This document shows positions 11,001-46,798 of a stretch of 64,000 nt of DNA, piece after piece. Under the pieces are notes generated by a model. The model was not told the origin of the DNA and did not search any database. It was given only the letters and a program-made list of their open reading frames with translations. This DNA comes from a virus. The stretch spans positions 1 through 64,000 of IMG/VR virus record IMGVR_UViG_3300049736_000695; one strand, 5' to 3'. Each line of letters begins with the position of its first letter. The stretch's first letter is position 1. The translations under genes and the position numbers were made by a program.

Positions 11001-11270
11001 AGGAATTAAAGCCTGAACATATGTAGCATCAATAAGACTTGTTACTTCGGCAGAGTCAAGTTGAGCTTGGGCTACAACCTCTACGGCATCAGCAATTGCT
11101 GCAACTCGTGCAGAGTCAACGAACGCCTGTATTTGATTGCTGCTAGTTTTATAGTAGATTTTTCCGTCGGCAAAGTTAATGGCGAGTTCGCCATAATCTA
11201 GATCGCTATCTACTGGTACTTTACCTACTACGGAAGACCGTTTAAGTAGTACTTTTGGTGTTGTTGTCAT
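5022..11270 (-). CDS. long modular tail fibre protein (2082 aa), about 57 DS motifs
   Basis: N-terminal KRSSV.GKVP...L.YGELAIN..DGK.YY fibre/neck motif, DSAY.QAR repeats, ADTLDG repeats, Gly-rich domain, cupredoxin-like domain, about 7 VYLNG..L...DY repeats, C-terminal ITLP..A..GD.I.IID domain. Confidence 0.85.
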   Translation of the reverse strand: MTTTPKVLLKRSSVVGKVPVDSDLDYGELAINFADGKIYYKTSSNQIQAFVDSARVAAIADAVEVVAQAQLDSAEVTSLIDATYVQALIPESYLATIIDSSYINARSDHYTTANHDSDFEIKYATKSTTNLPEGTNLYYTKARADSDIAASLNDSGNTVSITINNTIEDKVDSAYVLARVQEAPFLDSADAIQLIDSAYIQARQVDLQRDSGFITNVIDSAHVQARQITYDFLDSAEAVAIIDSHVNTAFVNTLNINADTLDGQHGNYYLDYNNFTNKPAILDLTDVSTQVTADVDKAFVDALNVDADTLDGQNGTHYLDYTNFTNTPTIPSFGNNYIDSATVVNIITREGLDSDLVIALVDSAYVALRDRFQDSSLVTSTVTQTFVNSLNIDADNLDGQTGTFYLDYNNFTNTPAIASGGLDSALVIKLVDSAYVSERVSFTAPSSSRTALGLTAVATGTNNATWTFDTDASAENFEGLIHGVQFPGSTTGTVLGFKDAGGKYYSIGDNFNSVGSTRTASASRTNNVVTVSWVGTGYSWVNDTDYVGGIGAAISANGGTLPLISTYSPRINVNTSGGFNNPYVVGDATSGTGYGTSSPVYGATATVAASKSYVSLTNAIDSAYIAERVNALDSAEAIDLIDSAYVRARQQYDYFYITGSTKPTKLSDFDNDVGYITDASFDDFESREFIGNEGGLTDKVYSFIVPTGVTTISAVAIAGGGGGGGVQSGSGGDGGGGGLSYDTSLTVTPGETLTITVGHSGNGGQAPSDPPGAVGSGDAAGNTTIKRSSTVLLQANGGTGGSGASNGSGGSGGTTLSYDGGGNGGVRGAGQYTGNGSTSGAASLLGTSAAALTKLYGEGGTGIANHGKRGAVRIIWGAGRSYPDTNIVQTFNNVYGESGTDSATVISLINSTVDSAYIELRRPVESIFNVTSSGSSAYTFNGDGFSSGRNNPTLYLTRGKTYKFAMAASGHPFQIRVSNGGSAYSTGVTNNGAQTGDILFTPDMNAPTSLVYQCTNHGGMVGNIVILDEVSVPTFGTDYVDSAFVTSQINALIDGAPGTLNTLNEIAAALNDDDSAMDTLLALINAKSDLDSADAINLIDSAYIQARQTTGGGGTVDSADIIAIVDSAYIQARQSSGGGGSAITIQDEGSSLSTAASTINFVGSGVVASGTGATKTITIAGGSGGGSATAVELTQTVFNFNADSGQSSFTGLDVDSGKFQVYLNGLLLPRSDYTHNSSKVDLLVAADSGDVLEVIKFSGNDTGHVAVKQRHYIYTADSGQTLFTGSDDNSQILSYTQDRINVYLNGLLLLDSADYTQNGAGSNVTLINGATVGDIVDIQILSGSTGTFSPLEQTLFEFTADSGQTIFTGSDDNSQSLDFTDDKVTVFLNGVLLANGDYSTSNNNKVTLTTAADSGNLITINRLSGNNVGVDSGRVTTLITSNVDSAYIQARTAAGTDSAAVISLIDSAYINARVNPFDSSHVLNLVDSAYIQLRDRFQDSSGILAIVDSGYVQARQTAQDFAYSSLTGTPTIPTLGTDFVDSAEAIALIDSNYVRLRVTKSDLDMEGNKVLFGNVYDSVGGLPSATNYHGMFAHVHGTGAGYFAHAGNWTRLANYSELSTYGNSNVTTLIDSAYVQARTAAGTDSAATIALITSTVDSDYIGSKVDFTRGEFTTQRSQYTATAAQTVFNHSSIDATHLDVYINGVLQVVNDDYTASTSAVTFGTGVDSGYSVSIIERRGRVATQRALVEAKYYFTTPTPTTSITGNDDNGDTLDYSVGGLDVYLNGILLKDSDDYSTNAGTTVTLVSATDSNDIVTLINRKGVVVSPNVANYEFTATANQTSFSGADINGNTLSYAPGAIQVHMNGIILRAVDYSATNGSTINLVTAASVNDEIIVSAFSNPGQNMELYKFTADSGQTIFQGNDITGTSLAYQTGNIQVFMNGLLLNDSDDYNANNGMSVVLTSGADASDEIKIASFVSNTNAIKTNAWSAPSGTPVTATAGDKLFIDTSTAKTITLPSSASIGDEIRIIDVTGNASSNNITVSRNGHKIQGGTTDLTINVDRAGIGLVYYNVAQGWVLIEN
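10021..10500 (-). repeat. three copies of ADxLDGQxGxxYLDYxNFTNxP repeat within the long fibre
   Basis: Visible in translation (approx. aa 257-417). Confidence 0.8.
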
Positions 11271-12840: not shown

Positions 12841-13037
12841 TAAAATGTACCTCCGGTCAGAAGGTCAACATTCTTCCACAATCCAGTCGAAGCTTCATAT
12901 TGTAAAACATGATCATCTTCTAAATCTCTGATTCGTACATCTAATAGATCATCTAGTCGCTGAGCCTGTGCGCCCACAACTCTACGAACCGGAGTTCCTA
13001 TGGTAATTTTTCTTACGAGAGTTTTTGTTTCAGACAT
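12840..13037 (-). CDS. small virion protein
   Basis: 65 aa, L.DL.DV...VLQY....G.W.N fibre-type motif; translationally coupled. Confidence 0.6.
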   Translation of the reverse strand: MSETKTLVRKITIGTPVRRVVGAQAQRLDDLLDVRIRDLEDDHVLQYEASTGLWKNVDLLTGGTF

Positions 13038-13390
13038 TACGCATCCGTGACATTAGGGTTAACACGTATCTTTCCTTCAAGAACTCTTTCAATGATAGTA
13101 TTTGCTGAATCATCTAAGTAAGAGATCTCTACGTCATACACATAATTACCAACTTTAAGTGCAGTTGTTTGTGTATTTGTCAAAGAGAGTGTTAGTATGC
13201 CACCTGTTGCGTCTGCTATTGCTGTCGAAAAGGAATGAGTGTCTGATGAATCGCTATTAAAGTTGCGTTTCATCTGCGCAGCTGCTGAAAAGTTTGTTAA
13301 ATTTTTTGGATTGCCATTAATATCAACTAATTCTAGTTGAATCGCTATGTCCGACCCTTGGTCGATCGCAAATCTTTCGTATTCTGCCAT
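13037..13390 (-). CDS. virion structural protein (Ig-like fibre-attachment type)
   Basis: IDQGSD...LT.F.A.AQM...G.LTLSLT.TQT.ALK.G.YVYDVEI...RVLEG.I.V.P.VT, typical of marine T4-like structural genes. Confidence 0.65.
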   Translation of the reverse strand: MAEYERFAIDQGSDIAIQLELVDINGNPKNLTNFSAAAQMKRNFNSDSSDTHSFSTAIADATGGILTLSLTNTQTTALKVGNYVYDVEISYLDDSANTIIERVLEGKIRVNPNVTDA

Positions 13391-13433
13391 TTTACCACTC
13401 GATACTAAGTAACTCGAATCATTATTCTAATCT

Positions 13434-13441
13434 TATTTATA
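13434..13441 (-). promoter_or_regulatory. T4-type late promoter TATAAATA for fibre operon
   Basis: Exact consensus, intergenic. Confidence 0.8.
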
Positions 13442-13450
13442 AAAAAAAGT

Positions 13451-13480
13451 GTTTACATTGCTGCATAAATAGTGTATAAT
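13451..13480 (+). promoter_or_regulatory. sigma70/T4-early-type promoter of the enzyme island, with nested late-like CATAAATA
   Basis: GTTTACA, 17-nt spacer, TATAAT; A-tract upstream; AGGAG SD follows; CATAAATA at 13464-13471. Confidence 0.75.
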
Positions 13481-13491
13481 AGGAGATAATA

Positions 13492-14103
13492 ATGCTAGAA
13501 GAACTTTTATCTAGAAGAAAACAAGTTCAACGGTTTAAAGACGATGTTTTTCCGGAAAAAGAGTTAGTTAAAAGTCTCTTAGAAAAAACTTATGAACTGG
13601 TACCATCAAAACAAAATCTTATGCCATATGAAGTATTAGTATTAGGTCCAGATAAAATAAATGAAAAACAAGAATTACTTTACTTATCACAAAATGTACG
13701 ATCTACAGAATCGGGTCACACAAATTCATATCATAATAAACAATTGCTAGCACCATACGTTTTGATTTTTACACAACGATTAGCCTTTCCTCCTAACTTA
13801 CATGTTCAAGATTTAATAAATAAAGGTCATCCATATAGAGAATGTAATGTACATAATTATACAGAATATAGAAATATACCAGCTATTGAAACAGGAATGT
13901 TTATGTTAACATTATCTTGCTTATGTGCAGAAAATAATATTGATGTTTCTTATACTGCTTGCTTGCCGTGCAAAAAAGAAAAATTTAGTTTTATAAACGA
14001 AGATGTGTATATTGTTATGAGTTTAGGATATAAAACGCATATAAGAATGCGAAGCATAAATGAAAACAAACCAACTATTGATGAGGTTATTTCTTGGGTG
14101 TAA
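13492..14103 (+). CDS. nitroreductase-fold flavoprotein
   Basis: RRKQVQRF...P...PSKQNLMPYEVLV N-terminus, IETGMF...L.....ID.SY, SLGY. Confidence 0.65.
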   Translation: MLEELLSRRKQVQRFKDDVFPEKELVKSLLEKTYELVPSKQNLMPYEVLVLGPDKINEKQELLYLSQNVRSTESGHTNSYHNKQLLAPYVLIFTQRLAFPPNLHVQDLINKGHPYRECNVHNYTEYRNIPAIETGMFMLTLSCLCAENNIDVSYTACLPCKKEKFSFINEDVYIVMSLGYKTHIRMRSINENKPTIDEVISWV

Positions 14104-14921
14104 ATATAGTATGTACTGCCAAGCCGTGTGACGGGCTATTTTATTATAGTTATGAATACACTCAGTATCTTAATCATATCGGTATCAAAACTGATATGAT
14201 TATCGTTACACATCCACATTTTACAACTGAGGAATATTTTGATGCCATTACTCAAAAATACACCGCATTTGAAAATGTTATCTTCGATGACTTTGATAAT
14301 ATAGGTCACACACTAATAATGGGTCGCAGTATGATGACGTTACCTTTTATTAATCGTGAATCATATTCTATGGATCAATTGTTATTGCTTCATCTTTTGT
14401 TTAAGTACAGAGTTATTTCCGTATATTCAGAAAATCATCCTATCGTATATCATGACGCGTTAAGTTATTTTTGTCCAGCTCATGTAACTGATCTTTGCGA
14501 TTATGGAATATATCCGGATGGGGAAGGCGTGCATTTTGAAAAGAAAATATTCTTTGATATTCATAAGATGATTGAAAGAGATCGCAAATTCGAATATCTC
14601 TTTAACGGTACAAATAAGGAATATTATGATGCGGCTAAAAAAGTTATAAGTAATTATAAGTCTCATGGAGTAATGATATACAATATAGGACACTACGATT
14701 CGCGAATCAATAATATTATTGTACCTGTTGATAATCTTTTAGGTATTTTTGATAAATATGTTTATACAAAAGAAACACTTGATCCTGCGCCAAGGATTAT
14801 ACAGGAATGTAAATATCATAATAAAGAGATTATATTCGAAGCTACGAATAGAGGTGCTAAAGTTTATTTTGACAGACCAATTGAAAAGCCAAATGTGGAG
14901 GCAATTATAGATGCAATATGA
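14094..14921 (+). CDS. hypothetical protein, possible GT-B-like glycosyltransferase
   Basis: TTG start with GAGG SD; C-terminal DPAPRIIQECKYHNKEI resembles the GT-B E-x7-E-like nucleotide-binding segment. Confidence 0.4.
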   Translation: MGVNIVCTAKPCDGLFYYSYEYTQYLNHIGIKTDMIIVTHPHFTTEEYFDAITQKYTAFENVIFDDFDNIGHTLIMGRSMMTLPFINRESYSMDQLLLLHLLFKYRVISVYSENHPIVYHDALSYFCPAHVTDLCDYGIYPDGEGVHFEKKIFFDIHKMIERDRKFEYLFNGTNKEYYDAAKKVISNYKSHGVMIYNIGHYDSRINNIIVPVDNLLGIFDKYVYTKETLDPAPRIIQECKYHNKEIIFEATNRGAKVYFDRPIEKPNVEAIIDAI

Positions 14922-14932
14922 ATGGAGTATGA

Positions 14933-15619
14933 ATGATACAAGATTCATTAAAAAATAAAAAACACGTTTGGCATTATGATACTAATATAGTTCCGAACGA
15001 ATCAGAAATAGAAGACATAGTAAGAGAATCTTATAAGTTTGGCCAATCAAAACAAAAAGCATTTGCATACGAAATTTTTATCTTAGGACCTGATTCTGAA
15101 CGCAGCCAAAGATTAATGAATTTATGTGACGGAAACAGAATACAAGTTGACATAGATGCATACGGAAATAAAGGTGAAAATACTCATAGTAATATAAAAA
15201 GAAGAATTAATGACGGCCTTGTGCATTTGCTAACAGCCCCATGGACTTTAGTTATTACACCTAGATTGACTGAACCTAATCCTTATATAGCTAAACTATG
15301 GAAAGAATCTGATTCATATTGGCAGCACTTAGACCCTGACTTTTGTGAACGCAATCGACAGATACCACTTGAAGTAGGATTACTAGTAAATACGATCACT
15401 GGAATAACTTTAGATAAAGGCTTAGATATATCATACACACTTTGTGTACCAAAAAAGATAGAAGACATGGAAGATTTTCCTTATCTGACATTTACGCCAA
15501 TACTAATTGTAACTATAGGCAAAGCAAAAAAATATTATTATGAAAGGCTTACTGAAGAAGAAGCTTTAGAATATACTAAACCAGAATTTGAAGAAATATT
15601 TAAGTTTGTAGATAGGTGA
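14933..15619 (+). CDS. second, divergent nitroreductase-fold protein
   Basis: Paralogous to 13492 (SKQ..F.YE...LGP, L.AP..L..T.RL, EVG...GLDISYT.C.P). Confidence 0.6.
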   Translation: MIQDSLKNKKHVWHYDTNIVPNESEIEDIVRESYKFGQSKQKAFAYEIFILGPDSERSQRLMNLCDGNRIQVDIDAYGNKGENTHSNIKRRINDGLVHLLTAPWTLVITPRLTEPNPYIAKLWKESDSYWQHLDPDFCERNRQIPLEVGLLVNTITGITLDKGLDISYTLCVPKKIEDMEDFPYLTFTPILIVTIGKAKKYYYERLTEEEALEYTKPEFEEIFKFVDR

Positions 15620-15623
15620 TATA

Positions 15624-16688
15624 ATGAATTATGAAGGTTGGAATCAAGATTATCTTGAAAATAAAGAAGCATACATGAAACTTTTTGATAAGGTAATGCA
15701 AGAAGATAATGAAAAGAATGTAGAGTTTCTAGAAAAAAAGATAGCAAAATATGTAGGTAGGTCGCATGGTGTTTTAATTAATAGCGCCACTGATGCATTA
15801 CATTATTCGTTAAAGTGTTTAAATATCCAAGAAGGTGATGAGGTTCTAGTGAGTAATTTCTCATGGATATCGTCTGCATCTAGTATCCTTATGACAGGTG
15901 CATATCCTGTATTTTGTGATATTGATTTAGATTCTTACCATATCTCATTTGATGAAATTAAAAAGAACACTACGAGTAAAACTAAAGCCCTTATTTACAC
16001 TCATCTGTTTGGCAATATGACCGAAACAAAAGAGATAGAAAAATACTGTAAAGAAAACAACATAGCATTTATTGAGGATTCTGCACAATCACTCGGTTCA
16101 ATCTATAAAAGTAGATATGCTGGCTCGATCGGTGATATTAGTTCTTTTAGTTTTAATCATAACAAAGTTATATCCGGTATTTCCGGCGGTGGTATTATTC
16201 TTACTGATAATAAAGAACATGCTGATATGGCTCGTAAACTAAGACGTCATGGTAAAGGTGATGACTATGAAATACTCGGATATAATTCAAAGATGTTTTA
16301 TATTAATGCTGCCTTTATTGAGTTTAGATTTGATAAGATAAAAGAGTATCAAATGGCAAGAACTAAAGTTGCCTATAAATATTATGAGGCATTACAGGAT
16401 ATACCTATTATAACTCAGGAACCAGATGATATGACTGTGCTACATAATTACCATAAATTTGTGGTAAGATTTGAAAATAAAGAAATACGTGATGAAGTTA
16501 AAGATGAGTTAGGTGCAAAGATTCATTACGATTTACCGCTTGATCGCAATAAAGTTTTCTATCGACCTTATCACGCAAATAGCAATGCACAAATAGCAAG
16601 TGATACAATATTATCTTTGCCTTGTCATCCCTATGTAACAGAAGAAGAAGTACTAAAAACTAGTATGGTAATTGGATGTATGGCATGA
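15624..16688 (+). CDS. DegT/DnrJ/EryC1/StrS PLP-dependent sugar aminotransferase
   Basis: NSATDAL, GDEV, PVFCDID, HLFG, IEDSAQSLG, SFSFNHNK (PLP Lys), GGGII, LSLP.HP. Confidence 0.92.
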   Translation: MNYEGWNQDYLENKEAYMKLFDKVMQEDNEKNVEFLEKKIAKYVGRSHGVLINSATDALHYSLKCLNIQEGDEVLVSNFSWISSASSILMTGAYPVFCDIDLDSYHISFDEIKKNTTSKTKALIYTHLFGNMTETKEIEKYCKENNIAFIEDSAQSLGSIYKSRYAGSIGDISSFSFNHNKVISGISGGGIILTDNKEHADMARKLRRHGKGDDYEILGYNSKMFYINAAFIEFRFDKIKEYQMARTKVAYKYYEALQDIPIITQEPDDMTVLHNYHKFVVRFENKEIRDEVKDELGAKIHYDLPLDRNKVFYRPYHANSNAQIASDTILSLPCHPYVTEEEVLKTSMVIGCMA

Positions 16689-17335
16689 ACAGCGTTAATC
16701 ATAAAAAGCAAATGTATTTTTTAACTAGACGTAGTATTAATGTTGATATAACACACCGATGTTCATTAGAATGTCCTCGCTGTCAAAGATCCACATCTTT
16801 TATTTCCCATGGCATCAAGGTTCCAGGTGAAGATCTATCAATACAAAATTTTGCAAAGATAGTAAAGCATTTCAATCATGTAAACTTTTGTGGTCAAGTA
16901 TCTGATCCAGTACATCATCCTAAGTTCGTAGAGTTTCTAGAAATACTGTATAAAGAAAACAAAAGTACAGCTGTGCATCATGCTTCTGCCGCAAAAGGTA
17001 TGAATTGGTATCATAAAGCGTTTAAAGCTAATCCACACGCAAGATGGTGGTTAGCTCTAGATGGAACTCCAGATAGTAGCCCTATGTATAGAATAAACCA
17101 AGATGGATGGAAAATGTATGAAATAATGAAAATTGCTAAAGAACACTTGACAAATACTCCAGTTTGGCAATTTATAGTTTTTAGTTATAACGAAGACGAA
17201 ATGGAAATAGCACATAAAATGGCTAAAGAAATAGGCATAGATTTTGTAATAATAAACTCGTCTAGATGGCTAGGAAAAGACGATCCATTGAAACCATCAA
17301 ATCCTGAATTATCGTTGAGTTTGAATGATGGATGA
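16685..17335 (+). CDS. radical SAM protein (no fused SPASM)
   Basis: CSLECPRC; FCGQVSDP; LDG; WQFIVF.YNE; start set at ATGA overlap 16685. Confidence 0.85.
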   Translation: MNSVNHKKQMYFLTRRSINVDITHRCSLECPRCQRSTSFISHGIKVPGEDLSIQNFAKIVKHFNHVNFCGQVSDPVHHPKFVEFLEILYKENKSTAVHHASAAKGMNWYHKAFKANPHARWWLALDGTPDSSPMYRINQDGWKMYEIMKIAKEHLTNTPVWQFIVFSYNEDEMEIAHKMAKEIGIDFVIINSSRWLGKDDPLKPSNPELSLSLNDG

Positions 17336-17753
17336 AAAACAAAAACAGGCTCTGTATAATCCTGAAAGAACTGCAGTAGATGATGCTGAATTTTCTGAAT
17401 GGAAGAGTTATGAGCTGGATCCTAAATGCTTAGATGACAGACAGCCATCGTTTGCTTTGACTAATAGAGGTGAATTAATCCCATGTTGTTGGATGGACAC
17501 CCAAGTTAATCGTCATGATGAAGATTACCAAAAACTATTAGCAGTAAGTAAAATAGAAGATTATGATTCAATAGGTGAAATACTATTTACTGATGAATGG
17601 ATACAGTTTTCAAAAAATATTTCAAATGGTATTGGCTTTATATTCTGTTACCGAGCGTGTAAAAAAAGAGAAACTCCACAACAGAAACGTGAAAGCTTTT
17701 ATAAAAATGACGCATCGGATTTAGATGATATATCAAGAATCAAAGAATTATAA
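17325..17753 (+). CDS. stand-alone SPASM/twitch-like Fe-S protein
   Basis: PKC...G.LIPCCW...CYRAC cysteine pattern. Confidence 0.65.
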   Translation: MMDEKQKQALYNPERTAVDDAEFSEWKSYELDPKCLDDRQPSFALTNRGELIPCCWMDTQVNRHDEDYQKLLAVSKIEDYDSIGEILFTDEWIQFSKNISNGIGFIFCYRACKKRETPQQKRESFYKNDASDLDDISRIKEL

Positions 17754-17765
17754 GAGATTTATTTA

Positions 17766-18467
17766 ATGTGGTCTAAATATAATTGTAATGTGCTGTGTGA
17801 TCTTACGACTCATTGTAATGCTAAGTGTCCTCAGTGTTCTAGAACTAATCATAAAGGATTAACTCGAAACGAATACGTACCATTAAAACATGTTGATCTA
17901 AAAGAATGGATTGATATGTATGAAAAGTCGTATTCACATATCAGATCATTTCATTTCTCTGGGCAATGGGGAGACGCAATGATGAATCCTTATGTTGAAG
18001 ATATATTTAAGCATATAGTAGATAATTCAAAAGCTTGGATTAGTTTTTCTACAAATGGATCGTTAAGAGACGAAGAATTTTTTTGGCGTATTGGATCACT
18101 AACAAATAAAATATCGGGTATTTTTGACATGGATGGTATTACGCAAGAAACGCATGAATATTATAGACGCAATACAAATCTAAGTAAAGTAATGAATAAC
18201 TGTGAAACATTTGCAATGACTAATTCTAAGACCGAAGTCTTTACTGTTGTGTTTAAACATAATCAACATGAAATTGATAAAATAACTAAATGGTGTAACG
18301 ACCGCGGTATTGTTCATAAGCCTTTTCAATCAAATCGTTTTATAAGAACTCCTACGTGCAAATACACATGGAAAGGCAAAGAATATATATTAGAGCAAAC
18401 AACAGATAAAAGATTCTTAGATGTATATGAAGAAGACGGTAGGACGGTAAGAGATTGGCGAAAATAG
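17766..18467 (+). CDS. radical SAM protein
   Basis: CNAKCPQC; FSGQWGD; STNGS; DMDG; VFKHNQHEI. Confidence 0.88.
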   Translation: MWSKYNCNVLCDLTTHCNAKCPQCSRTNHKGLTRNEYVPLKHVDLKEWIDMYEKSYSHIRSFHFSGQWGDAMMNPYVEDIFKHIVDNSKAWISFSTNGSLRDEEFFWRIGSLTNKISGIFDMDGITQETHEYYRRNTNLSKVMNNCETFAMTNSKTEVFTVVFKHNQHEIDKITKWCNDRGIVHKPFQSNRFIRTPTCKYTWKGKEYILEQTTDKRFLDVYEEDGRTVRDWRK

Positions 18468-18763
18468 TTTGTGAGTGGGCTGAAGATAATAAAGTCTATG
18501 TTGATGAAAATGGTAATGTATACCCATGCTGTTATTGGCATCATGAAATTAGAACGCGGAGAGTTGAAATTCAGCCAGAGTTTATTATAAATTACAGTAA
18601 ACAAGTAGATATTGGTAAGTGGAACTTAAAAGATCAGTCGTTGATTGAAATTACAAATAGTGATTTTTATCAACGTGAATTAAAAGAACATATTGAAGGC
18701 GAATCGCCCAATAAAGTTTGTAAATGGCAATGTGGTAATGAAAAGCATAAAACAGCTGAATGA
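18455..18763 (+). CDS. stand-alone SPASM/twitch-like Fe-S protein (TTG start or -1 fusion to upstream)
   Basis: IVC...VYVD.NG.VYPCC...NL...SL.EI...CKWQC. Confidence 0.7.
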   Translation: MAKIVCEWAEDNKVYVDENGNVYPCCYWHHEIRTRRVEIQPEFIINYSKQVDIGKWNLKDQSLIEITNSDFYQRELKEHIEGESPNKVCKWQCGNEKHKTAE

Positions 18764-19550
18764 AGAAGGCTATCTTGCGATAGACTTCTACCTCTCAAAG
18801 TCTTGTAATAAGTCGTGTCATTATTGTACGGCATGGACTTTACAAATGAGAAACCTTGATGTAGATATGGAGTTCTTAAGTAATACACTTAAGTATTTGT
18901 CTCCATATAAAGCACGTATACAATTGCTAGGTGGAGAGCCGGGTCTTATTAAAAATCTAGATGAAGTGTTAAATGAAATTAAGAAGTATAAGAATCTTGT
19001 ACCATCAGTGTTATCAAATTCATTTGTACGAAATCGCTACCCGCATATTCTAGAAGATCCTTCAATTGTATATCAAGAACATTTGGTCTTAGACTTTTAT
19101 GAAGATAATATTGAAAAGCTTGGCAACTACGACTTCTTTGAAGAAAATGATAAAAACAATTATAACGTAATTATTATGACACCAAACTATTTTAAGTATC
19201 GCGAAAACTTTGATCTTTCAATTGTAGATCATAACAATACACTGTTTAAACATTTTAACTCACGATCGCCTGATTATGATATAGAAGAACAAGCACCCGA
19301 ATTTGAACGTAGAATGTGTGCAGCATTTCCAAAAGTACCAGTAATAGATTTCGAGATTCAAAAAATTAGGCATTGCAGTAAAAAGGTAATTAATGGATCA
19401 AGACAATTTGATGTTACAAAAGAAAACATAGATAAGATGATGAACTATGAATTATTTGAGTTTGAAGAATATTGTAAGAAATGTACTGAACATATTGAAA
19501 AAAGAACAGACGATCAGATATTAAAAATTATGGAAGCAGGGAATGTTTAG
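18738..19550 (+). CDS. radical SAM protein with C-terminal Cys cluster
   Basis: CNKSCHYC; LLGGEPGL; C...HC...CKKC; start moved to ATG 18738. Confidence 0.85.
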   Translation: MKSIKQLNEEGYLAIDFYLSKSCNKSCHYCTAWTLQMRNLDVDMEFLSNTLKYLSPYKARIQLLGGEPGLIKNLDEVLNEIKKYKNLVPSVLSNSFVRNRYPHILEDPSIVYQEHLVLDFYEDNIEKLGNYDFFEENDKNNYNVIIMTPNYFKYRENFDLSIVDHNNTLFKHFNSRSPDYDIEEQAPEFERRMCAAFPKVPVIDFEIQKIRHCSKKVINGSRQFDVTKENIDKMMNYELFEFEEYCKKCTEHIEKRTDDQILKIMEAGNV

Positions 19551-20931
19551 TGTAGCAATTGGACCACACGATCACAATACATATGATGGAAAATACCATA
19601 ATCAAATAGAAAGACATAGTCGTATCAAGCATAACTTTGATAAGACGCAAGAATTTTTTAATGATTATTATAAACCAAATAATCCTCTTTGTATTACTGC
19701 CACAATCGGTGGAATAGAAAACACGGGATTTAATCATAAGTGTTTATCTTTTAAACCTAAAAAGCTGTGGGATTATTGGTATGAAGATAATCTATACTAT
19801 ATAGATCATCACCAATCACATGCCGTCTATGCACTACTAACATCAGGTTTTTCTCAGTCAGATGTTTTAGCTATTGACGGTAGAGGTTGGAATTATAAAT
19901 GTGTTTTCTTTGATAAGAATGGTAACATTACTGATCTATCAAATAAAATACAAATAGGATTACAGTGGAATTATTTTTCGAAAAGACTGGGGTTTGGCGA
20001 TCTTGGTGCCGGTAAGCTTATGGGATTATCAGCTTACGGTGAATATAATATTGCAATACATTTAGCAATCGAAAACCAAAATTATGATTACCTACTAAAT
20101 GCTAAAAAAGAAGACATAGCCGCAACATTACAACATCATACCATTGAGCTTGTAAAACAGCATGTTCTTCCTCTTAAATCCTGTGATAACATTTGCGTTG
20201 CTGGTGGCGTTGCGTATAACGGATATATGAACGAAGAGTTTACAAAGCATTACGATAAAGTACATGTACCGCCGGCACCAGGAGATGAAGGTCAATCACT
20301 TGGCACTTATATGCATGCTGACTATATCTTAAACAACAACATTCATGTTCCGGAAACATACGCTGGTAAAGAATATAATTTTGATGAAGGTGATCCTATT
20401 ACACCGAGAGAAGTTGGTGAAGCAATAGCAGCTGGTAAGATTGTTGGATGGTTTCATGGTAAATCTGAATCAGGTAATAGAGCATTAGGCAATCGTAGCA
20501 TTCTTGCAGATCCACGTAATCCTAAAATTAAAGACATTATTAATAAAACTATTAAACAAAGAGAAGACTTTCGTCCATTTGCACCATCAGTTCTGGAAGG
20601 ACACTATCCGTATTACTTTAATACTAATCAATCAAGTCCTTATATGTCTCGTATCGTACCAGTTAAGTCTCACCTTCATGATGTCATTCCAGGCGTAACG
20701 CATGTTGATGGTACTGCACGAATACAAACAGTAAATAGAAAACAAAATGAAAAATTTCACGAAGTAATACAAGGGTTCTATCAAGCAACTGGTGTACCAA
20801 TGGTACTCAACACTAGTTTTAATTGTAAGGAACCGATTGTTGAAACTCCGGAAGATGCAATAAATACTTTTAATAAAACACAATTAGATATGTTGGTAAT
20901 AAATGAACGTAGTGTGCGTAAAATGGGGTAA
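19543..20931 (+). CDS. carbamoyltransferase (NodU/CmcH/TobZ family)
   Basis: ER.SR.K, HHQSHA, IDGRG, GKLMGL.AYG, AGGVAYN, GDEG.SLG, RALGNRSILADP, RE.FRPFAP, HVDGTARIQTV, LNTSFN. Confidence 0.95.
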   Translation: MFSVAIGPHDHNTYDGKYHNQIERHSRIKHNFDKTQEFFNDYYKPNNPLCITATIGGIENTGFNHKCLSFKPKKLWDYWYEDNLYYIDHHQSHAVYALLTSGFSQSDVLAIDGRGWNYKCVFFDKNGNITDLSNKIQIGLQWNYFSKRLGFGDLGAGKLMGLSAYGEYNIAIHLAIENQNYDYLLNAKKEDIAATLQHHTIELVKQHVLPLKSCDNICVAGGVAYNGYMNEEFTKHYDKVHVPPAPGDEGQSLGTYMHADYILNNNIHVPETYAGKEYNFDEGDPITPREVGEAIAAGKIVGWFHGKSESGNRALGNRSILADPRNPKIKDIINKTIKQREDFRPFAPSVLEGHYPYYFNTNQSSPYMSRIVPVKSHLHDVIPGVTHVDGTARIQTVNRKQNEKFHEVIQGFYQATGVPMVLNTSFNCKEPIVETPEDAINTFNKTQLDMLVINERSVRKMG

Positions 20932-21601
20932 TAAGTTTGATTCATTTCATGTGAATCGACTATATAAAATGGTAAAGCGAAATCTGCAGTGTGATTTTAA
21001 TTTTATATGTTATACTGAAGACGCAAATGGCATTGATCGTAACGTTATTATACAACCATTGCCTGATTATGATTTAGAAAAATGGTGGTGGAAACTTACT
21101 CTCTTCGAATATCCCACTAGAACTCTTACAATATTTTTAGATCTAGATGTTGTAATTCAAAATGACATTACGCACTTTAAAGATTATTGTGTAGATGACA
21201 TGTTATGTTTAGTAAAAGCATATTGGAAACCATATATGTCAATAGTAGAAGAAGAATTTGATGTTGATATTAATTCTTCTATTATGATATGGAATGGCGA
21301 TTGTACCGATATATGGAAATCATTTTATAATGACTATGAACATTACATATGGAAATACGCTGGAATAGATCGTTACTTGTATTACAACCAGTCAGATAAA
21401 TTATTGTATTTGCCAGAAGGTGAAGCCTATTCGCGATTATATGGAACAAATAAGTTTAACTACAATTTATATGGGCATGGTTTAAAAAGACTTTTCTATA
21501 GACCAGAAATACCTGTTTGTATTTTTGATGGATGGAATTTAGGTATTAATAAACCATTTGATGAAGGAGGATATAATGGCTTTGAAAAATATTGGAATTG
21601 A
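20903..21601 (+). CDS. GT-A-like glycosyltransferase (VCVKWG family)
   Basis: VVCVKWG.K...VNRL..MV, WW.KL.LF, FLDLDVVI DxD motif, NSSIM.W. Confidence 0.75.
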   Translation: MNVVCVKWGNKFDSFHVNRLYKMVKRNLQCDFNFICYTEDANGIDRNVIIQPLPDYDLEKWWWKLTLFEYPTRTLTIFLDLDVVIQNDITHFKDYCVDDMLCLVKAYWKPYMSIVEEEFDVDINSSIMIWNGDCTDIWKSFYNDYEHYIWKYAGIDRYLYYNQSDKLLYLPEGEAYSRLYGTNKFNYNLYGHGLKRLFYRPEIPVCIFDGWNLGINKPFDEGGYNGFEKYWN

Positions 21602-22181
21602 TATTTTTAAAAATATTATAGCAGAAGCTAGACATAATACTAACTTATTAGATTCTTATAGTCCTAATCAATTCAAGTCAAAAGAAAGCTTAATTAAACT
21701 AATACAAAAATTAGAGTTATTAAACCCTCATATCACAATACTCGGTAGTTGGTATGGAAGTATTTTAATACCCGCATTTGTAGATCAAGCCGAAAAGATA
21801 ACATGCATTGACTTAGAAGATATGTGCATTCGAATTGCTAAAAACAGATTGTTTAAAAAATATAAAAATATCGAATATTATAACGAAGATGTATTTGATC
21901 CTATATGCCATAATAGAATTAAAAATTCTAACTTAATTATAAACACTTCATGTGAACACATGTCTAATATGTCAGAACTACCAGCACTGTATGAAAGTAA
22001 CGCGTACTTCGCATTTCAATCTAATAACATGTATAACATACCCACACATATAAATTGTGTTGCAAGCATTGACGAGTTTTATTTTCAACTGCCACACAAC
22101 GCAACTGTTATAGCAGAAGATGAAGTAGAAGATGATAGAGGTACTAGGTTTACACTTATTGGTAAATTATGCGCAGAGTAA
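21576..22181 (+). CDS. class I SAM-dependent methyltransferase-like protein
   Basis: ILGSWYGS, CIDLE, INTSCEHM; start at ATG 21576 after AAGGAGG. Confidence 0.7.
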   Translation: MALKNIGIDIFKNIIAEARHNTNLLDSYSPNQFKSKESLIKLIQKLELLNPHITILGSWYGSILIPAFVDQAEKITCIDLEDMCIRIAKNRLFKKYKNIEYYNEDVFDPICHNRIKNSNLIINTSCEHMSNMSELPALYESNAYFAFQSNNMYNIPTHINCVASIDEFYFQLPHNATVIAEDEVEDDRGTRFTLIGKLCAE

Positions 22182-22957
22182 TATACAGTCTTTATATTGA
22201 TATGCAAAAACCTGTATCTCACTTTGAAAACCAAAAAAAGTTTAATGACAACTATGATTGGCTTTTAAAAAAACAAATGGCATATGCTGATACGATTGGA
22301 GTTGAGTATAAGCATTTTACATATGACGACGATTATATAGAATTTAGTAAACAGTTTGGTCCTGAAATATCTGAATATAATATCATTAATTTTTATAAGT
22401 TGCATCTCTTATATACTTTAGACTATGAAGAAATACTATATCTTGATTTAGATGTTATACCAGTGACAAATGAAAACTTTTTTGAAGTTTGGGATCTATC
22501 AAAAGGCATTGCAATTATGTCAGAAGATTGGTTCTGTAAAGACAGACATAGACAACACCATACCATACGATCTCCTCTTGCAAAATACTGGAATGCCCGC
22601 GCAATGCTAGGTGAAATTCATCCTGTATTTAATACAGGTATTATAGGTGCTAATAAAAAATCTTTAGACGAACTAGACTATTTTGGCAATTTTGAAAAAA
22701 CAATAGATTTTATGACTGATCTTATTAATGATGAATTTTGGCCGGATGATATTAGAAATTTATTTGGTTACGATAATGAAACGATGTTTGCATATAAGTT
22801 ATTTGGTCAAGGTTTAAAATATCAGAATCTATATGAAACTGGCTGGCACTTCTTTATGGATAAGTGGAGCTTTATACCAAAAAATACAAAATTTGTACAT
22901 TGTATAAACAAAGATTTCAGTTACGTAAAAGGTTGGTATGACAAACATTATATTTGA
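22169..22957 (+). CDS. GT-A-like glycosyltransferase
   Basis: YA..IG.EY, FYK..L, LYLDLDVIP, FNTGII, DNE, H.INK. Confidence 0.75.
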   Translation: MRRVIYSLYIDMQKPVSHFENQKKFNDNYDWLLKKQMAYADTIGVEYKHFTYDDDYIEFSKQFGPEISEYNIINFYKLHLLYTLDYEEILYLDLDVIPVTNENFFEVWDLSKGIAIMSEDWFCKDRHRQHHTIRSPLAKYWNARAMLGEIHPVFNTGIIGANKKSLDELDYFGNFEKTIDFMTDLINDEFWPDDIRNLFGYDNETMFAYKLFGQGLKYQNLYETGWHFFMDKWSFIPKNTKFVHCINKDFSYVKGWYDKHYI

Positions 22958-23582
22958 CATATGGATTGATTTTGGCGATAAACAGTGGTTAGCTTACAAA
23001 GACATTTTAATCGAAAAACATAAAAAGTATGCAGAGCTTTGTGACGCAGAATATAAACACTACAATATAAAACGCGAAAATAAAATCGATTTTACTACTT
23101 TAAATTTTATGAAAATTTATATTGCAGAAGACTTAGCTCAAAAATATAACAAGGTTTTGTATTTAGATTTAGATGTTATACCAAGAACCAAAATAAACTT
23201 TTTTGAATATCACGATTTCAGTAAATTGTTATGTCATAGAACATTAGCGCCTCTTTGGAAAATTAATAGAAAAAGACTAATGTTAGAATCAGAGGGAATT
23301 AATTCTGAACATAATGTAATAAATACGGGAGTGTTTGGCATAACAAAGGAAATTTGCAATCTTATAAAATTTCAAAAAAGGGAAAAAGAAATAAATCTAG
23401 AATATTCAAATGAATATGCTGCTAATAACGAAATTTATTTATCATATATTGTAGAAAAATATAATGTGCCGTATACCGATATTGGTAAAGCATGGAACTT
23501 TATAGTTGACGAAGCCTATCCTAAATCAGATGCATGTCATTTTTTACATATGTCTACAAAGGAATTTAGTTCTGTTTTATGA
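22938..23582 (+). CDS. GT-A-like glycosyltransferase (paralog of upstream gene)
   Basis: YA..C.AEY, FMK, LYLDLDVIP, INTGV, NNE, WNF. Confidence 0.75.
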   Translation: MTNIIFDIWIDFGDKQWLAYKDILIEKHKKYAELCDAEYKHYNIKRENKIDFTTLNFMKIYIAEDLAQKYNKVLYLDLDVIPRTKINFFEYHDFSKLLCHRTLAPLWKINRKRLMLESEGINSEHNVINTGVFGITKEICNLIKFQKREKEINLEYSNEYAANNEIYLSYIVEKYNVPYTDIGKAWNFIVDEAYPKSDACHFLHMSTKEFSSVL

Positions 23583-24060
23583 TTTGAATTGCTGATTCTA
23601 AAGCATCGATAGTATTAACCGCTTTTCGTATTTTAGCCTTTGCTTCTCTATCAGTTGAATTTTTAATAGCATCAAATTCAAACAATGCAAGTTTAAAAGC
23701 AAATAAAGATTCCTTTGCGGTTTGTTCGTTTTCGTCTTCAATAAAAATAATATCTAAAAGTTTTTTGTACGAATCGCTATTTTTTTCATCAAATTCTAAA
23801 AGCATGCCGCGCTTTTTAGCAATTGCCATAACCTCACTTTCATAATCTTCTTGAGATTGTCTAATGTACTCATGAGTTGATTCGTGCAATTCATCAATAG
23901 TAATATGTTTTAAAAGTTTTTTCCACTGAGGATTACCATCTTCTGCAGAAATAACATAAGGTATTTGATTGCCTTCATCATCCGCATAATATGCTTTTAC
24001 TTCTGTTCTTTCATTATTTCCAAAGTGTGCTCTAATAAATTTCATTTGCGTTATCCTCAA
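23566..24060 (-). CDS. hypothetical protein (possible fibre assembly factor)
   Basis: 164-aa ORF ending the structural operon; likely start is MKFIRA after GAGG. Confidence 0.6.
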   Translation of the reverse strand: MRITQMKFIRAHFGNNERTEVKAYYADDEGNQIPYVISAEDGNPQWKKLLKHITIDELHESTHEYIRQSQEDYESEVMAIAKKRGMLLEFDEKNSDSYKKLLDIIFIEDENEQTAKESLFAFKLALFEFDAIKNSTDREAKAKIRKAVNTIDALESAIQIIKQN

Positions 24061-25241
24061 ACTGGTTCAGTGTATGATCTAAGACTGTAAGTATTTTGAA
24101 TTTGTGGAGTACCATTAGGAAACTCTTGTGTACGATAGTTGTCGCCTGATGCTGGCTGATTCGGCCCTGTTGTATAACCCGCTGCTGAGCTTCCATCTAA
24201 TCTTTCATTCTCAACTTCGCCTGATCCTGCATCAAGCGGTGAAGAGCTTCCGCCGGTACCTGAATTAACTCCATTAATATTGTTCTGAATATACCAATGA
24301 AGCTTACCCGCTCCCGCCGAGTTATATCCATTTGCTGCAATATGTTGTACATATGGTTCAAAGAACTGTTGCATGCCCGCAAGGCTCCATTCGTGTATGC
24401 CACCATTTGCGTCAGCGTATACCATGTTTGGCGGTGGCGGCGGTGAATATGCTGGATCTTTATCCATAGAATAAAGATCCCATTTATTTGCATTGGTAAC
24501 GGCTAGTGGCTGATCTAGAGTTTCCGGAATTCCACCAGAAGTATATGCGTTTTTATTAGCAATTGTATCTTCAAATACTCTTCCCATACTTGTAAGAGTA
24601 CCTCCTTCATCATGCGTAGCAGGCACAGTAAAGTCTTTACGAATGATTGCGTATCCGCCATTTCTACCGATTACAATATCCGGATGTGTAAGATTTGATT
24701 TGTTTCCACCAATTTCAGCAAGAGCTTCTGCAACCAATTCAGCGAGTAGAAGCATTGGAAATTTTCTCATATTCTTTCTATTAGGCGAATATGAACCGAG
24801 AGTAAGCGGCGGTGAATCACACCCATAATTTAATATATTAGGCATAGGTACAGTCGTATCATAATTCACTTGAATTTTAGTCCAGTCAAATTCAAGTGAA
24901 TTAATATTAGGTGTTTGGCTTGCGCTTCGAAATGAACTTACGTGATTAGTAGCTGATCCGGCCTGATAACGAGTATCACGCATAATACCGAGGTTACCGC
25001 CAGATCCTACATATGACAATGTAACTGTTTGATTTCGAGTATAAAGATGCCGAATCCAATTATAAAACTGCAAAAGTTCAGTTGTATTCATTTCACGAAG
25101 ACCGTGCGCACCACCCTTTGTTCTAGAACCATAAAAATCATAACCACTAATAACATTACCGGTGTCGTTATTATTCATATATAATGTAGGATATCTTCTA
25201 TCAACTACAAGAGGTCTTGGAGCGGGTATTAATAATGACAT
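24057..25241 (-). CDS. putative virion structural protein
   Basis: G/S/N/T-rich 394 aa, YRTQEFPNG C-terminus, in late operon. Confidence 0.6.
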   Translation of the reverse strand: MSLLIPAPRPLVVDRRYPTLYMNNNDTGNVISGYDFYGSRTKGGAHGLREMNTTELLQFYNWIRHLYTRNQTVTLSYVGSGGNLGIMRDTRYQAGSATNHVSSFRSASQTPNINSLEFDWTKIQVNYDTTVPMPNILNYGCDSPPLTLGSYSPNRKNMRKFPMLLLAELVAEALAEIGGNKSNLTHPDIVIGRNGGYAIIRKDFTVPATHDEGGTLTSMGRVFEDTIANKNAYTSGGIPETLDQPLAVTNANKWDLYSMDKDPAYSPPPPPNMVYADANGGIHEWSLAGMQQFFEPYVQHIAANGYNSAGAGKLHWYIQNNINGVNSGTGGSSSPLDAGSGEVENERLDGSSAAGYTTGPNQPASGDNYRTQEFPNGTPQIQNTYSLRSYTEPV

Positions 25242-25253: not shown

Positions 25254-25913
25254 TTAAGGTACGTTAATATCACTATCAGTAGAAAGTAAATAACCGCCTA
25301 ACAATATTTGACCGATAGAATCTTTTATAGTAAATGGAAATACATGAGAAAAATCTATACTATCGAACTGAAAGTTACTTTTTACTACTAAGTTATTTAC
25401 AGTAGCATGACTTATATACGCACTATCTTCTACATTTAATTTATTAAAGCTTGCGCTATCATAATCTATATATTCACCTGATAAGTATTTAATTCTTCCA
25501 CTATCAAATTGAATTGACTGACCAGATAAGAAAGCAATTTCTGCACTTTCAATATGTGCGTCTACAAAATCGAGTTGATGCCCTCTTAAGATATGAGTGA
25601 ATGCTGAATCAACATCAGCACTATCTGCATACATGTAGTTTGCTCGCACTCTATTAATAACTGCACTATCAGCATAAATCGTAGAAACTTGCAGCGCTCC
25701 ACCAGAATCAAATAGTGCAGCTGAAACACTATCTATTTCACGGTGTAGATGATTAAGAGCTGAAACAAAATTTGAATCATTCTTACCAAACCTAGAAGAT
25801 TCAAAATGAGAATCAAGTAAATCTAGATCACCGAAATTATCTGACAGCACATTATTCTTAGCAATCCAGGTGCCGATAGAATTTGAAGTCTGTATTTGTA
25901 TTCTACGTGTCAT
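25254..25913 (-). CDS. DS-rich fibre-like virion protein (13 DS in 219 aa)
   Basis: N-terminal SN.....N.....GDLD.L shared with neighbour; beta-repeat body. Confidence 0.7.
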   Translation of the reverse strand: MTRRIQIQTSNSIGTWIAKNNVLSDNFGDLDLLDSHFESSRFGKNDSNFVSALNHLHREIDSVSAALFDSGGALQVSTIYADSAVINRVRANYMYADSADVDSAFTHILRGHQLDFVDAHIESAEIAFLSGQSIQFDSGRIKYLSGEYIDYDSASFNKLNVEDSAYISHATVNNLVVKSNFQFDSIDFSHVFPFTIKDSIGQILLGGYLLSTDSDINVP

Positions 25914-25929
25914 GTTCTATCTCTTGTTC

Positions 25930-25937
25930 TATTTATA
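25930..25937 (-). promoter_or_regulatory. T4-type late promoter TATAAATA
   Basis: Exact consensus upstream of 25913. Confidence 0.7.
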
Positions 25938-27108
25938 ACCGGTTATCCGAATCATATTGACTTAGCATTAATGTCCCGAAATGTATAGTACTACCATCAG
26001 ATTCATAAATTGTAAATGGAGAAGTATATTCAAAGCCACTATCAAGTCTTCCATGAAAATCAGCTCTATAAGATGAATCGAATCCTACTGGAATTGCAGG
26101 AGGAGTTGCTGAATCAAACGATGAGTCTACATCAAAAACAAATCTTTTAACATGTAGAGGAGAAGGGACATATAAGTTATCTCCATCTGATTCAACTATC
26201 CAAGTATCAAATGTGGCAGATTCGCGTACTACTATTTTTTTAAAATTAGCGCTATCATAATCAAGAGTCCAATTTTGAGAACTATCAGTTGAGTCTGGCG
26301 CTAAGAGTGTAATTGTGCTTTTGCCAGAATCAAAACTTAATGGAGTATTAATATTTATTGTTGACGAATCAAATGTATATCCATTTGGAAAACCTGGTTT
26401 GCGCGGTCTTGGGAATGGGAAAAGATTACGTGGACCATGTACAACGCCAATATATGCGCTATCTCTAACTGTAAATCCAAAATTAAAGACCGGTACAAAA
26501 CTACCTATACTATCAGTGCTATCATTAAAGAATGTACGGAAGCTGCTATCGCTTACCATCCATCGACCGACGTCTAAATCAATACCAGAAAAATTTCGTA
26601 TATAACCGCTGTCAATCGTAATTCCGGTATTAAAAACCGGCCCACCTTCAAAAGACGGTGTATAAAAATTACTGTCTAGACTATCTCTTACAATAGTTGC
26701 TGATGTAGAACTCAGATCAGAGTCTACTGGAATGAATAGCCCTTGTATTGTAAATCTTTTAAATACTGCACTATCTGCAACAAGAACTCGCTCAAAGCGT
26801 AATGTTGAAAATTCTAAACTGCTATCTACACTATCATTACTATCTAAAATTTCTTGGCCAAACATGGCCACTCTACATTTTTCTAGTTCACTATGTAACC
26901 ATTCTGCAGCAGCTACAGCTGACTGATTTGCAAGTCCACCGTTTTCGGTGTACTCGTTATCTTCAAAACCGCCTAAGTAGCTTCTTGTGCCTTTATAATT
27001 TCTTTTATTAAGGTCATCTAGATCACCAAGCCACTCATCCATTTGATTAATCTTATTAATCGTAGCAACGAGCGTATTGCTCATATTAAATATTACTTTA
27101 CGCGCCAT
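25933..27108 (-). CDS. DS-rich fibre-like virion protein (22 DS in 391 aa)
   Basis: Paralogous N- and C-termini with 25254-25913 (GDLD.L; PFTI..S.G....G..LS.DSD). Confidence 0.7.
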   Translation of the reverse strand: MARKVIFNMSNTLVATINKINQMDEWLGDLDDLNKRNYKGTRSYLGGFEDNEYTENGGLANQSAVAAAEWLHSELEKCRVAMFGQEILDSNDSVDSSLEFSTLRFERVLVADSAVFKRFTIQGLFIPVDSDLSSTSATIVRDSLDSNFYTPSFEGGPVFNTGITIDSGYIRNFSGIDLDVGRWMVSDSSFRTFFNDSTDSIGSFVPVFNFGFTVRDSAYIGVVHGPRNLFPFPRPRKPGFPNGYTFDSSTININTPLSFDSGKSTITLLAPDSTDSSQNWTLDYDSANFKKIVVRESATFDTWIVESDGDNLYVPSPLHVKRFVFDVDSSFDSATPPAIPVGFDSSYRADFHGRLDSGFEYTSPFTIYESDGSTIHFGTLMLSQYDSDNRL

Positions 27109-46753: not shown

Positions 46754-46762
46754 TTTACTTCC

Positions 46763-46770
46763 TATAAATA
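46763..46770 (+). promoter_or_regulatory. late promoter TATAAATA for gp4
   Basis: Exact consensus. Confidence 0.8.
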
Positions 46771-46790
46771 CAATTAGTAAATTACAACAC

Positions 46791-46798
46791 TATTTATA
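46791..46798 (-). promoter_or_regulatory. late promoter TATAAATA for gp48 operon
   Basis: Exact consensus. Confidence 0.8.

Follow-up and report, generated by a model that had tools for sequence, protein, structure and literature searches.

The window analysed here is a 64,000-nucleotide (nt) stretch of DNA from an uncultured marine T4-like phage (positions 1 to 64,000 of IMG/VR virus record IMGVR_UViG_3300049736_000695, a 78.4-kb viral record estimated to be 45% complete). Between minus-strand virion genes it carries an island of 14 plus-strand open reading frames (ORFs), which is most likely one operon of soluble cytoplasmic enzymes, probably building a sugar chain decorated with amino, carbamoyl and methyl groups. 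At the heart of the island is a cassette that is found only in phages and is very common in seawater. It is anchored by ORF9, a twitch radical S-adenosylmethionine (SAM) enzyme predicted from its modelled fold to oxidise a sugar alcohol and thereby to feed an aminotransferase of the DegT family.

The island and its enzymes

The 14 ORFs occupy 13492-23582 as follows.

13492-14103, plus strand: ORF1, nitroreductase-like flavoprotein, 203 residues (PF00881, E 2.5e-4, under the cut-off)
14094-14921, plus strand: ORF2, compact glycosyltransferase of predicted GT-B fold, 275 residues (AlphaFold2 (AF2) model, Foldseek)
14933-15619, plus strand: ORF3, diverged nitroreductase-like paralogue of ORF1, 228 residues (by paralogy)
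15624-16688, plus strand: ORF4, DegT/DnrJ/EryC1 pyridoxal phosphate-dependent aminotransferase, 354 residues (PF01041, E 4.9e-77)
16676-17335, plus strand: ORF5, radical SAM core, 219 residues (CxxxCxxC)
17325-17753, plus strand: ORF6, stand-alone SPASM/twitch-type Fe-S protein, partner of ORF5, 142 residues (PF13186 matches in its family)
17766-18467, plus strand: ORF7, radical SAM core, paralogue of ORF5, 233 residues (PF04055, E 6.4e-10)
18455-18763, plus strand: ORF8, SPASM domain in another frame, with a 13-nt overlap onto the end of ORF7, 102 residues (PF13186, E 2.5e-9)
18738-19550, plus strand: ORF9, twitch radical SAM enzyme, the cassette anchor, 270 residues from the ATG at 18738 (frame open from 18693)
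19543-20931, plus strand: ORF10, O-carbamoyltransferase of the NodU/CmcH/TobZ family, 462 residues (PF16861, 2.3e-67; PF02543, 2.4e-18)
20903-21601, plus strand: ORF11, GT-A-like glycosyltransferase with a DxD motif, 232 residues (phrog_1962, E 3.8e-11)
21558-22181, plus strand: ORF12, probable SAM methyltransferase, 207 residues (weak NCBIfam match)
22169-22957, plus strand: ORF13, GT8-like glycosyltransferase, 262 residues (PF01501, 30.8 bits against a cut-off of 24.3)
22938-23582, plus strand: ORF14, GT8-like glycosyltransferase, 214 residues (PF01501, 28.0 bits against the same cut-off)

Neighbouring ORFs overlap by 8-44 nt or leave gaps of at most 12 nt, and the single intergenic space at the island is 13391-13491. 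G+C content is 0.27-0.35 per island gene, against 0.36-0.42 in the minus-strand flank genes. A first-pass annotation, made from the sequence and its ORFs, had described a contiguous, mostly overlapping plus-strand operon that is more AT-rich than its surroundings, and both descriptions hold. Its count of 14 genes is right for ORFs; the number of functional units is instead about 12, because ORF5 with ORF6, and ORF7 with ORF8, form pairs of a radical SAM core and a SPASM domain. To the left on the minus strand lie genes for a 2082-residue fibre/baseplate protein, a 510-residue tail protein and a fibre-assembly protein (13037-13390), and to the right a split VrlC homologue (27316-32864; phrog_358), 30% identical to the VrlC proteins of phages Mosig and HTVC008M. 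No island protein has a membrane segment, the highest 19-residue hydropathy being no more than 1.28.

Contigs from an independent marine DNA run are identical to the window, and the island is therefore not an assembly artefact. More than 94% of its sampled words are present in 14 seawater or marine runs, six of which may be the source sample. In RNA libraries, the summed depth of contigs from relatives is greater over ORF7-ORF14 than over the flanks; this shows neither expression level nor timing, because genes cannot be ranked by the depth of contigs and because the flanking regions are hypervariable.

Pfam and NCBIfam identify DegT, three radical SAM cores, SPASM, both carbamoyltransferase domains and two GT8 proteins, and the family assignments of the first-pass annotation are right. 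ORF4 scores 260 bits against a cut-off of 19.8 and its translation keeps the Schiff-base lysine in an SFxxxK-type motif. Its matches in the PDB are 7b0d (1.7e-57), QdtB, WbpE, ArnB and BtrS; no paper was found for 7B0D, and its label, 'glutamine--scyllo-inositol transaminase', was given no weight. ORF10 has both a Kae1-like N-terminal domain (PF02543, 67 bits) and a YrdC-like C-terminal domain (PF16861, 226 bits), with invariant HHxxH, DG and GDEG motifs. Its N domain is shorter than that of TobZ (462 against 576 residues for the whole proteins), and its best PDB relatives are the novobiocin carbamoyltransferase, GdmN and TobZ.

ORF2 had been left without annotation and has no Pfam or PDB match by sequence. 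Its AF2 model (predicted local distance difference test score, 92.7) identifies it by fold as a GT-B glycosyltransferase. The model has the two Rossmann-like domains of this class and Foldseek aligns it with PimA, LanGT2 and WaaC at probability 1.0 and a template modelling (TM) score of about 0.5; across PimA, LanGT2, WaaC and BshA the matches span probabilities of 0.95-1.0 and TM scores of 0.34-0.53. ORF13 and ORF14 are covered only partially by PF01501, and each contains LDLDV, a DxD motif. ORF1 and ORF3 are paralogues (E 7e-20) within a virus-only, nitroreductase-like clade; for ORF1, viral nitroreductase clusters score 0.94 in Atlas. One faint NCBIfam match, together with 50% identity to Mosig_00090, annotated as 'putative methyltransferase', suggests that ORF12 is probably a methyltransferase. 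PDB sequence searches were uninformative for ORF2, ORF5, ORF7, ORF9 and ORF12, the last of which had no match.

A cassette confined to phages

Eighty viral contigs were recovered with an alignment of ORF9, although many of the loci are cut by contig ends. Homologues of ORF9 are present in all 80, of the carbamoyltransferase ORF10 in 78, of the DegT enzyme ORF4 in 76, of the methyltransferase candidate ORF12 in 68, of the GT-B enzyme ORF2 in 60 and of the radical SAM core ORF5 in 58. Nitroreductase-like genes are found in 50, ORF11 in 29 and GT8 genes in 22. Gene order defines a fixed core of GT-B, DegT, ORF9, carbamoyltransferase and methyltransferase; in nearly all of the loci DegT lies directly 5' of ORF9, with the carbamoyltransferase and methyltransferase on its 3' side. 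The periphery varies in the number of radical SAM/SPASM pairs and in its 449-residue and B12-type radical SAM enzymes, nitroreductase-like genes, an SGNH-like gene and outer transferases. There may be up to about ten radical SAM genes in a locus, and at seven loci the cassette includes UDP-glucose dehydrogenase. The first-pass annotation had named independent shuffling of the genes between genomes as the outcome to look for against a common pathway. For the core this is refuted, since its genes travel together across the 80 loci.

Among 50,697 phage records, homologues of ORF9 and ORF2 were found in Mosig only, the sole isolate with the cassette, and a megablast of the island against these records gave no match. 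In metagenomes, about 1,000 clusters of each of the two proteins are present at 90% identity. A motif scan of 185,579 species genomes yielded no relative of ORF9; its patterns were strict, making it weak evidence of absence. The nearest cellular carbamoyltransferases are 30-43% identical to ORF10, and the cassette is absent around them in all 80 cellular loci. Mosig has a syntenic plus-strand block, Mosig_00082-00094, whose proteins are 38-61% identical to those of the window and in which the homologues of ORF2 and of the radical SAM genes are annotated 'molybdenum cofactor biosynthesis'. Judged by sequence identity between the window and Mosig, the cassette is better conserved than the virion proteins that surround it.

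ORF9 and its predicted aminotransferase partner

The CxxxCxxC motif of ORF9, CNKSCHYC, is invariant in 17 sequences, as are four further cysteines (C194, C213, C246 and C249) in a C-terminal auxiliary cluster domain. BtrN and SpeY rank first in Foldseek, while in VIA BlsE (Z 12.9), SuiB (12.0) and BtrN (11.9) are tied. BtrN, SpeY and BlsE all act on sugars or cyclitols, BtrN and SpeY being twitch dehydrogenases of aminocyclitol pathways. BtrN and BlsE each prepare a keto intermediate directly before a DegT-family transamination. Given this precedent and the position of DegT beside ORF9 in the loci, the pair is expected to turn a sugar hydroxyl into an amine. We infer that it would take the place of an NAD-dependent dehydratase or dehydrogenase, neither of which the island encodes. 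The predicted BtrN-type role of the twitch enzyme, suggested originally, now rests on a fold match and on the four extra invariant cysteines.

Split radical SAM enzymes

In ORF5-ORF8 a domain that is normally fused has undergone true gene fission and permutation. Both ORF6 and ORF8 belong to the SPASM family, with PF13186 and the cysteine pattern C-x(13-20)-G-x4-CC...C-x3-C. ORF8 matches PF13186 at 37.7 bits (cut-off, 21.5). For ORF6 the assignment was settled by a Pfam scan of its family, in which 19 of 28 members, although not the window's own copy by itself, match PF13186 and five cysteines are invariant; alignment of the ORF6 family with ORF8 by hhalign was weak (probability 38%).

Among loci L006-L085, the SPASM gene immediately follows its core 41 times, with overlaps that vary, and immediately precedes it 22 times. 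Fused core-SPASM relatives of 358-406 residues also occur among the loci, including forms of 358-360 residues in L010 and L018. These came from the loci themselves; a search among proteins of at least 385 residues found no fused form of ORF5. The window's sequence across the ORF5/ORF6 junction recurs unchanged in a contig from the independent DNA run, and that across the ORF7/ORF8 junction in a contig from an RNA-library run. Sequencing error and programmed frameshifting are ruled out by the occurrence of both gene orders, the assorted overlaps and the fused relatives.

Promoters at the island boundary

Two elements lie in the intergenic space.

13452-13480, plus strand: promoter region, TTTACA-N17-TATAAT, with a late-like CATAAATA nested at 13465-13472
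13441, minus strand: canonical late-type motif TATAAATA, divergent from the island promoter and serving the fibre-assembly gene

TTTACA-N17-TATAAT, with agreement at 11 of 12 positions, is the region's best site; overall, promoter-like sites are at chance level (59 found, 65.7 expected). TATAAATA also stands upstream of the window's virion genes. When 11 distinct junctions between cassette and fibre gene were checked by hand, seven had NATAAATA 12-40 nt 5' of the first cassette gene; its background frequency is 1.2% per 93-nt interval. An automated survey of operon starts, in which gene runs were broken by unclustered ORFs, was noisy and gave NATAAATA at 13 of 56 starts; the hand-checked junctions are the more reliable. 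Of the promoter described at first, the site and its nested late-like motif are both present, but it is the late-type motif, and not the sigma-70-like promoter, that is conserved in relatives.

Proposed chemistry

The families and folds point to a route in which a hydroxyl of a transferred sugar becomes a ketone and then an amine, with carbamoylation and methylation to follow, and we regard this chemistry as likely. Host nucleotide-sugars would be the starting material, the chain being assembled and then tailored. Sugars would be moved onto the acceptor by ORF2 (GT-B) and by ORF11, ORF13 and ORF14 (GT-A/GT8). ORF9 would then oxidise a sugar alcohol to a ketone or, on a uronic acid, may decarboxylate or dehydrate as BlsE does, and the adjacent DegT enzyme ORF4 would convert the ketone to an amine. 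ORF10 would O-carbamoylate a hydroxyl via carbamoyl-AMP, and ORF12 would methylate. The two split radical SAM/SPASM pairs could provide extra radical tailoring, such as epimerisation or deoxygenation, whilst the nitroreductase-like flavoproteins may supply electrons or act as dehydrogenases. The acceptor would most likely be the phage's own fibre or baseplate proteins, late in infection.

The target of the sugars

Position and late-type promoters place the virion slightly ahead as target, with the host envelope close behind. The arrangement fibre-assembly gene < cassette > two conserved genes < VrlC recurs at about 30 loci. This conserved fibre/VrlC setting, the presence of TATAAATA before virion genes and that of NATAAATA at most of the hand-checked junctions all support modification of the virion. 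Taken as a whole, chemistry together with virion target, the proposal is plausible but tentative.

The flanks had also been described as rich in Asp-Ser dipeptides. This is correct for the minus-strand genes at 5022-11270 (57 seen, 18 expected) and 25254-27108 (35 against 7.7), but not for the genes that directly abut the island. Several fibre proteins, including that encoded at 34244-35458 on the minus strand, have Asp-Ser at 3-5 times expectation. No such enrichment was found in the virion proteins of Mosig and HTVC008M that were examined.

A number of findings weigh against a chain built on the phage's own virion. The glycan, the glycoprotein and the activities are predictions from families and folds, and the island has no gene for activation of nucleoside diphosphate (NDP)-sugars (a nucleotidyltransferase) or for a 4,6-dehydratase. 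The operon must therefore use host NDP-sugars, and the 'near-complete pathway' claimed by the first-pass annotation was an overstatement. The fold of ORF9 ties with that of the peptide-modifying SuiB. Four of the 11 junctions have no late motif, and one of these has a perfect sigma-70 promoter. Fibre-region proteins of Mosig are not enriched in Asp-Ser although the cassette is present, and Asp-Ser-rich fibres occur in just 17 of 69 loci, mostly the closest kin of the window; such fibres do not travel with the cassette, and their role as its sequon is unsupported. The island site is also a general hotspot for enzyme genes. At the equivalent fibre-island site HTVC008M (L086, 56402-59681) has an opposite-strand block of four 2-oxoglutarate (2OG)-Fe(II) oxygenases and a ferrochelatase. 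Its analogous cassette (L167, 125017-133406) adjoins ribonucleotide reductase (nrd) genes and not fibres. That cassette comprises a glycosyltransferase, a hypothetical protein, a radical SAM enzyme, a methyltransferase, a carbamoyltransferase, an NAD-synthetase-like protein, UDP-glucose dehydrogenase and a 2OG oxygenase, among which homology to the window-lineage cassette is detectable only for the carbamoyltransferase (33%) and UDP-glucose dehydrogenase (52%). The uncoupling from Asp-Ser-rich fibres and the HTVC008M cassette in a replication module weaken the argument from location.

The closest rival, only somewhat less probable than the virion, is that the same chemistry acts from the cytoplasmic face to remodel a glycan of the host envelope, be it lipopolysaccharide (LPS) core, O-chain, capsule or surface glycoprotein, so that competing phages are kept from superinfecting the cell or the infected cell is masked. 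Such a role was proposed by Zaragoza-Solas et al. for the glycosyltransferases of this island, GT8 being mainly an LPS family (PMC7029224). The fold matches of ORF2 include WaaC and PimA, inner-face enzymes on lipid-linked acceptors, and the G+C content of the island is similar to that of SAR11. A Pelagibacteraceae genome encodes a distant carbamoyltransferase (34% identity) in a nonulosonic-acid cluster; as this cluster also holds DegT and four methyltransferases, SAR11 surfaces probably carry such decorations. The location of the HTVC008M cassette among replication genes fits an envelope target too. However, the island has no flippase, polymerase, ligase, polyprenyl-phosphate transferase or other membrane protein, and the cassette is in none of the 80 cellular loci with the nearest carbamoyltransferases. 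Late-type promoters at most operon starts are likewise awkward for exclusion, which should act early.

Three further possibilities depart from a decorated surface. The enzyme set, including the B12-radical SAM and 449-residue radical SAM enzymes of relatives, is typical of aminoglycoside and blasticidin-type pathways and every enzyme is soluble, as would suit a free amino/carbamoyl pseudo-saccharide, aminoglycoside- or nucleoside-like, acting on the host or on competing phages and attached to no macromolecule. This would represent a phage-encoded antibiotic-type metabolite in a virus-host pair that is among the most abundant in the ocean, but it is improbable: neither the island nor its frequent neighbour families include a cyclitol synthase, nucleoside-forming enzyme, exporter or self-resistance gene, and three to four glycosyltransferases per locus are better suited to a chain on a macromolecule. 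That the radical SAM/SPASM enzymes and flavoproteins modify side chains of peptides or virion proteins, with the sugar enzymes secondary, is very unlikely. ORF9's invariant partners, DegT, carbamoyltransferase and GT-B, are all carbohydrate enzymes, and no conserved small precursor ORF, protease or transporter was found; this is set against the fact that SPASM enzymes are mostly peptide maturases, the presence of up to about ten radical SAM genes in a locus and the scores of SuiB, anSME and PqqE for ORF9, which are near those of BtrN and BlsE. Nitroreductase-fold dehydrogenases also occur in the pathways of ribosomally synthesised and post-translationally modified peptides, which counts in the same direction. 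Least credible of all is hypermodification of the phage DNA, for instance with carbamoylated or glycosylated hydroxymethyl bases. A TobZ-family enzyme does carbamoylate 5-hydroxymethylcytosine in DNA (PMC8670742), and the T4 DNA glucosyltransferases share the GT-B fold, 1y8z being a low-ranked match of ORF2. DNA is disfavoured because no homologue of PF00303 (thymidylate synthase/dCMP hydroxymethylase) was found in the 45%-complete record or in the complete genomes of Mosig and HTVC008M; nor was TGT/DpdA found in the record or Mosig. Furthermore, carbamoyltransferases beside glycosyltransferases were in unmodified contigs (PMC8670742), and a late promoter is too late for modification at the precursor level.

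Neighbouring genes and related loci

Directly next to the glycosyltransferase end of the cassette, about 30 loci have two unannotated genes, which in the window occupy 23566-25241 on the minus strand. Their products are an acidic, helical protein of 164 residues and a G/N/S/T-rich protein of 394 residues. In L082 they are inverted and co-directional with the cassette, and they may be linked to its function. The VrlC segment at 27316-28893 is just 31% identical to that of Mosig, compared with 38-61% for the cassette enzymes. At its own fibre-island site, Mosig has in addition Asp/Arg hydroxylases, an acetyltransferase, a TauD-like dioxygenase and an FMN reductase.

Related carbamoyltransferases occur in other settings. 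In Synechococcus phage ACG-2014d (L168, 105605-107104) a lone carbamoyltransferase gene is flanked by the major head protein gene and gp3 and has the same orientation as the late structural genes, and in S-SSM7 a carbamoyltransferase follows uvsW. In Pelagibacteraceae AG-891-J07 (L094, 5431-17092) a carbamoyltransferase of 567 residues is found inside the nonulosonic-acid cluster, alongside NeuB, a cytidylyltransferase, DegT, a GFO/IDH/MocA oxidoreductase, an epimerase, an AsnB-like protein and the four methyltransferases. Elsewhere in the window, an ORF with a TnsA-like endonuclease domain (46713-47309, plus strand; PF08722, E 1e-17) stands between minus-strand baseplate genes and a plus-strand block with a gene of a T4 baseplate-protein family (PF12322); it may be a mobile or homing element.

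Comparison with known systems

If fibres are indeed decorated, marine T4-like phages would here have their first virion glycan-tailoring system, with consequences for host range and for the arms race with SAR11. The island is also of enzymological interest, offering a predicted route to amino sugars by radical SAM chemistry in an aerobic setting, radical SAM cores naturally split from their SPASM partners in both gene orders, and an unstudied clade of compact GT-B enzymes. As Mosig is in culture, all of the readings are directly testable. No paper that combines radical SAM, carbamoyltransferase, DegT and phage was found in the literature.

The closest biochemical parallels are in antibiotic pathways. 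In butirosin (BtrN and BtrS), spectinomycin (SpeY) and blasticidin S (BlsE and BlsH) synthesis, as is predicted here, the keto product of a twitch radical SAM enzyme is aminated by a DegT-family enzyme. TobZ (tobramycin) is likewise a Kae1/YrdC two-domain enzyme of O-carbamoylation, and a GT-B enzyme and methyltransferase are similarly present. Unlike the aminoglycoside and peptidyl-nucleoside clusters, the island has no 2-deoxy-scyllo-inosose synthase, cytosine-forming step, exporter or resistance gene; a sugar-phosphate cyclase of the former kind was found neither among the 14 ORFs nor among ten frequent neighbour families scanned in the 80 loci. The island enzymes are just 11-15% identical to those of these clusters and are set in the fibre module of a lytic phage.

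Mimivirus employs a DegT-type aminotransferase for its fibril glycans. Glycosylation of the capsid and tail is also established in mycobacteriophages (Freeman et al. 2023, PMC10527164). In both, as in the window, viral glycosyltransferase and sugar-tailoring genes lie beside structural genes, and there they decorate the particle surface. Those systems use NAD-dependent dehydratases and have no radical SAM enzyme or carbamoyltransferase, and virion glycosylation, which is a prediction here, has been shown there. The 5-hydroxymethylcytosine carbamoyltransferase system found by MetaGPA (PMC8670742) is also phage-borne and shares the carbamoyltransferase family, but is defined by a neighbouring thymidylate-synthase-like hydroxymethylase, of which no homologue was found in the 45%-complete record. 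The island also differs from phage O-antigen modification of the Gtr/Oac type, having no integral membrane flippase, transferase or acetyltransferase.

The island type itself has already been published in outline, as the host recognition cluster (HRC) of pelagimyophages, which was assigned to modification of the host O-chain (Zaragoza-Solas 2020, PMC7029224). The HRC resembles the window's island in being hypervariable, in lying beside VrlC within the structural region and in carrying GT8 transferases and 'radical SAM cassettes'; the window's island adjoins VrlC and fibre-assembly genes, and its GT8 and radical SAM content varies between genomes. The published account does not include a conserved core, a GT-B enzyme, coupling of a twitch radical SAM enzyme to DegT, split SPASM genes or late promoters. 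To this outline the present analysis adds the two results that weaken the argument from location, namely the uncoupling from Asp-Ser-rich fibres and the HTVC008M cassette, together with the GT-B assignment of ORF2, the structural placement of ORF9, a core/periphery map of 80 loci, the fission and permutation of SPASM and the comparison of promoters.

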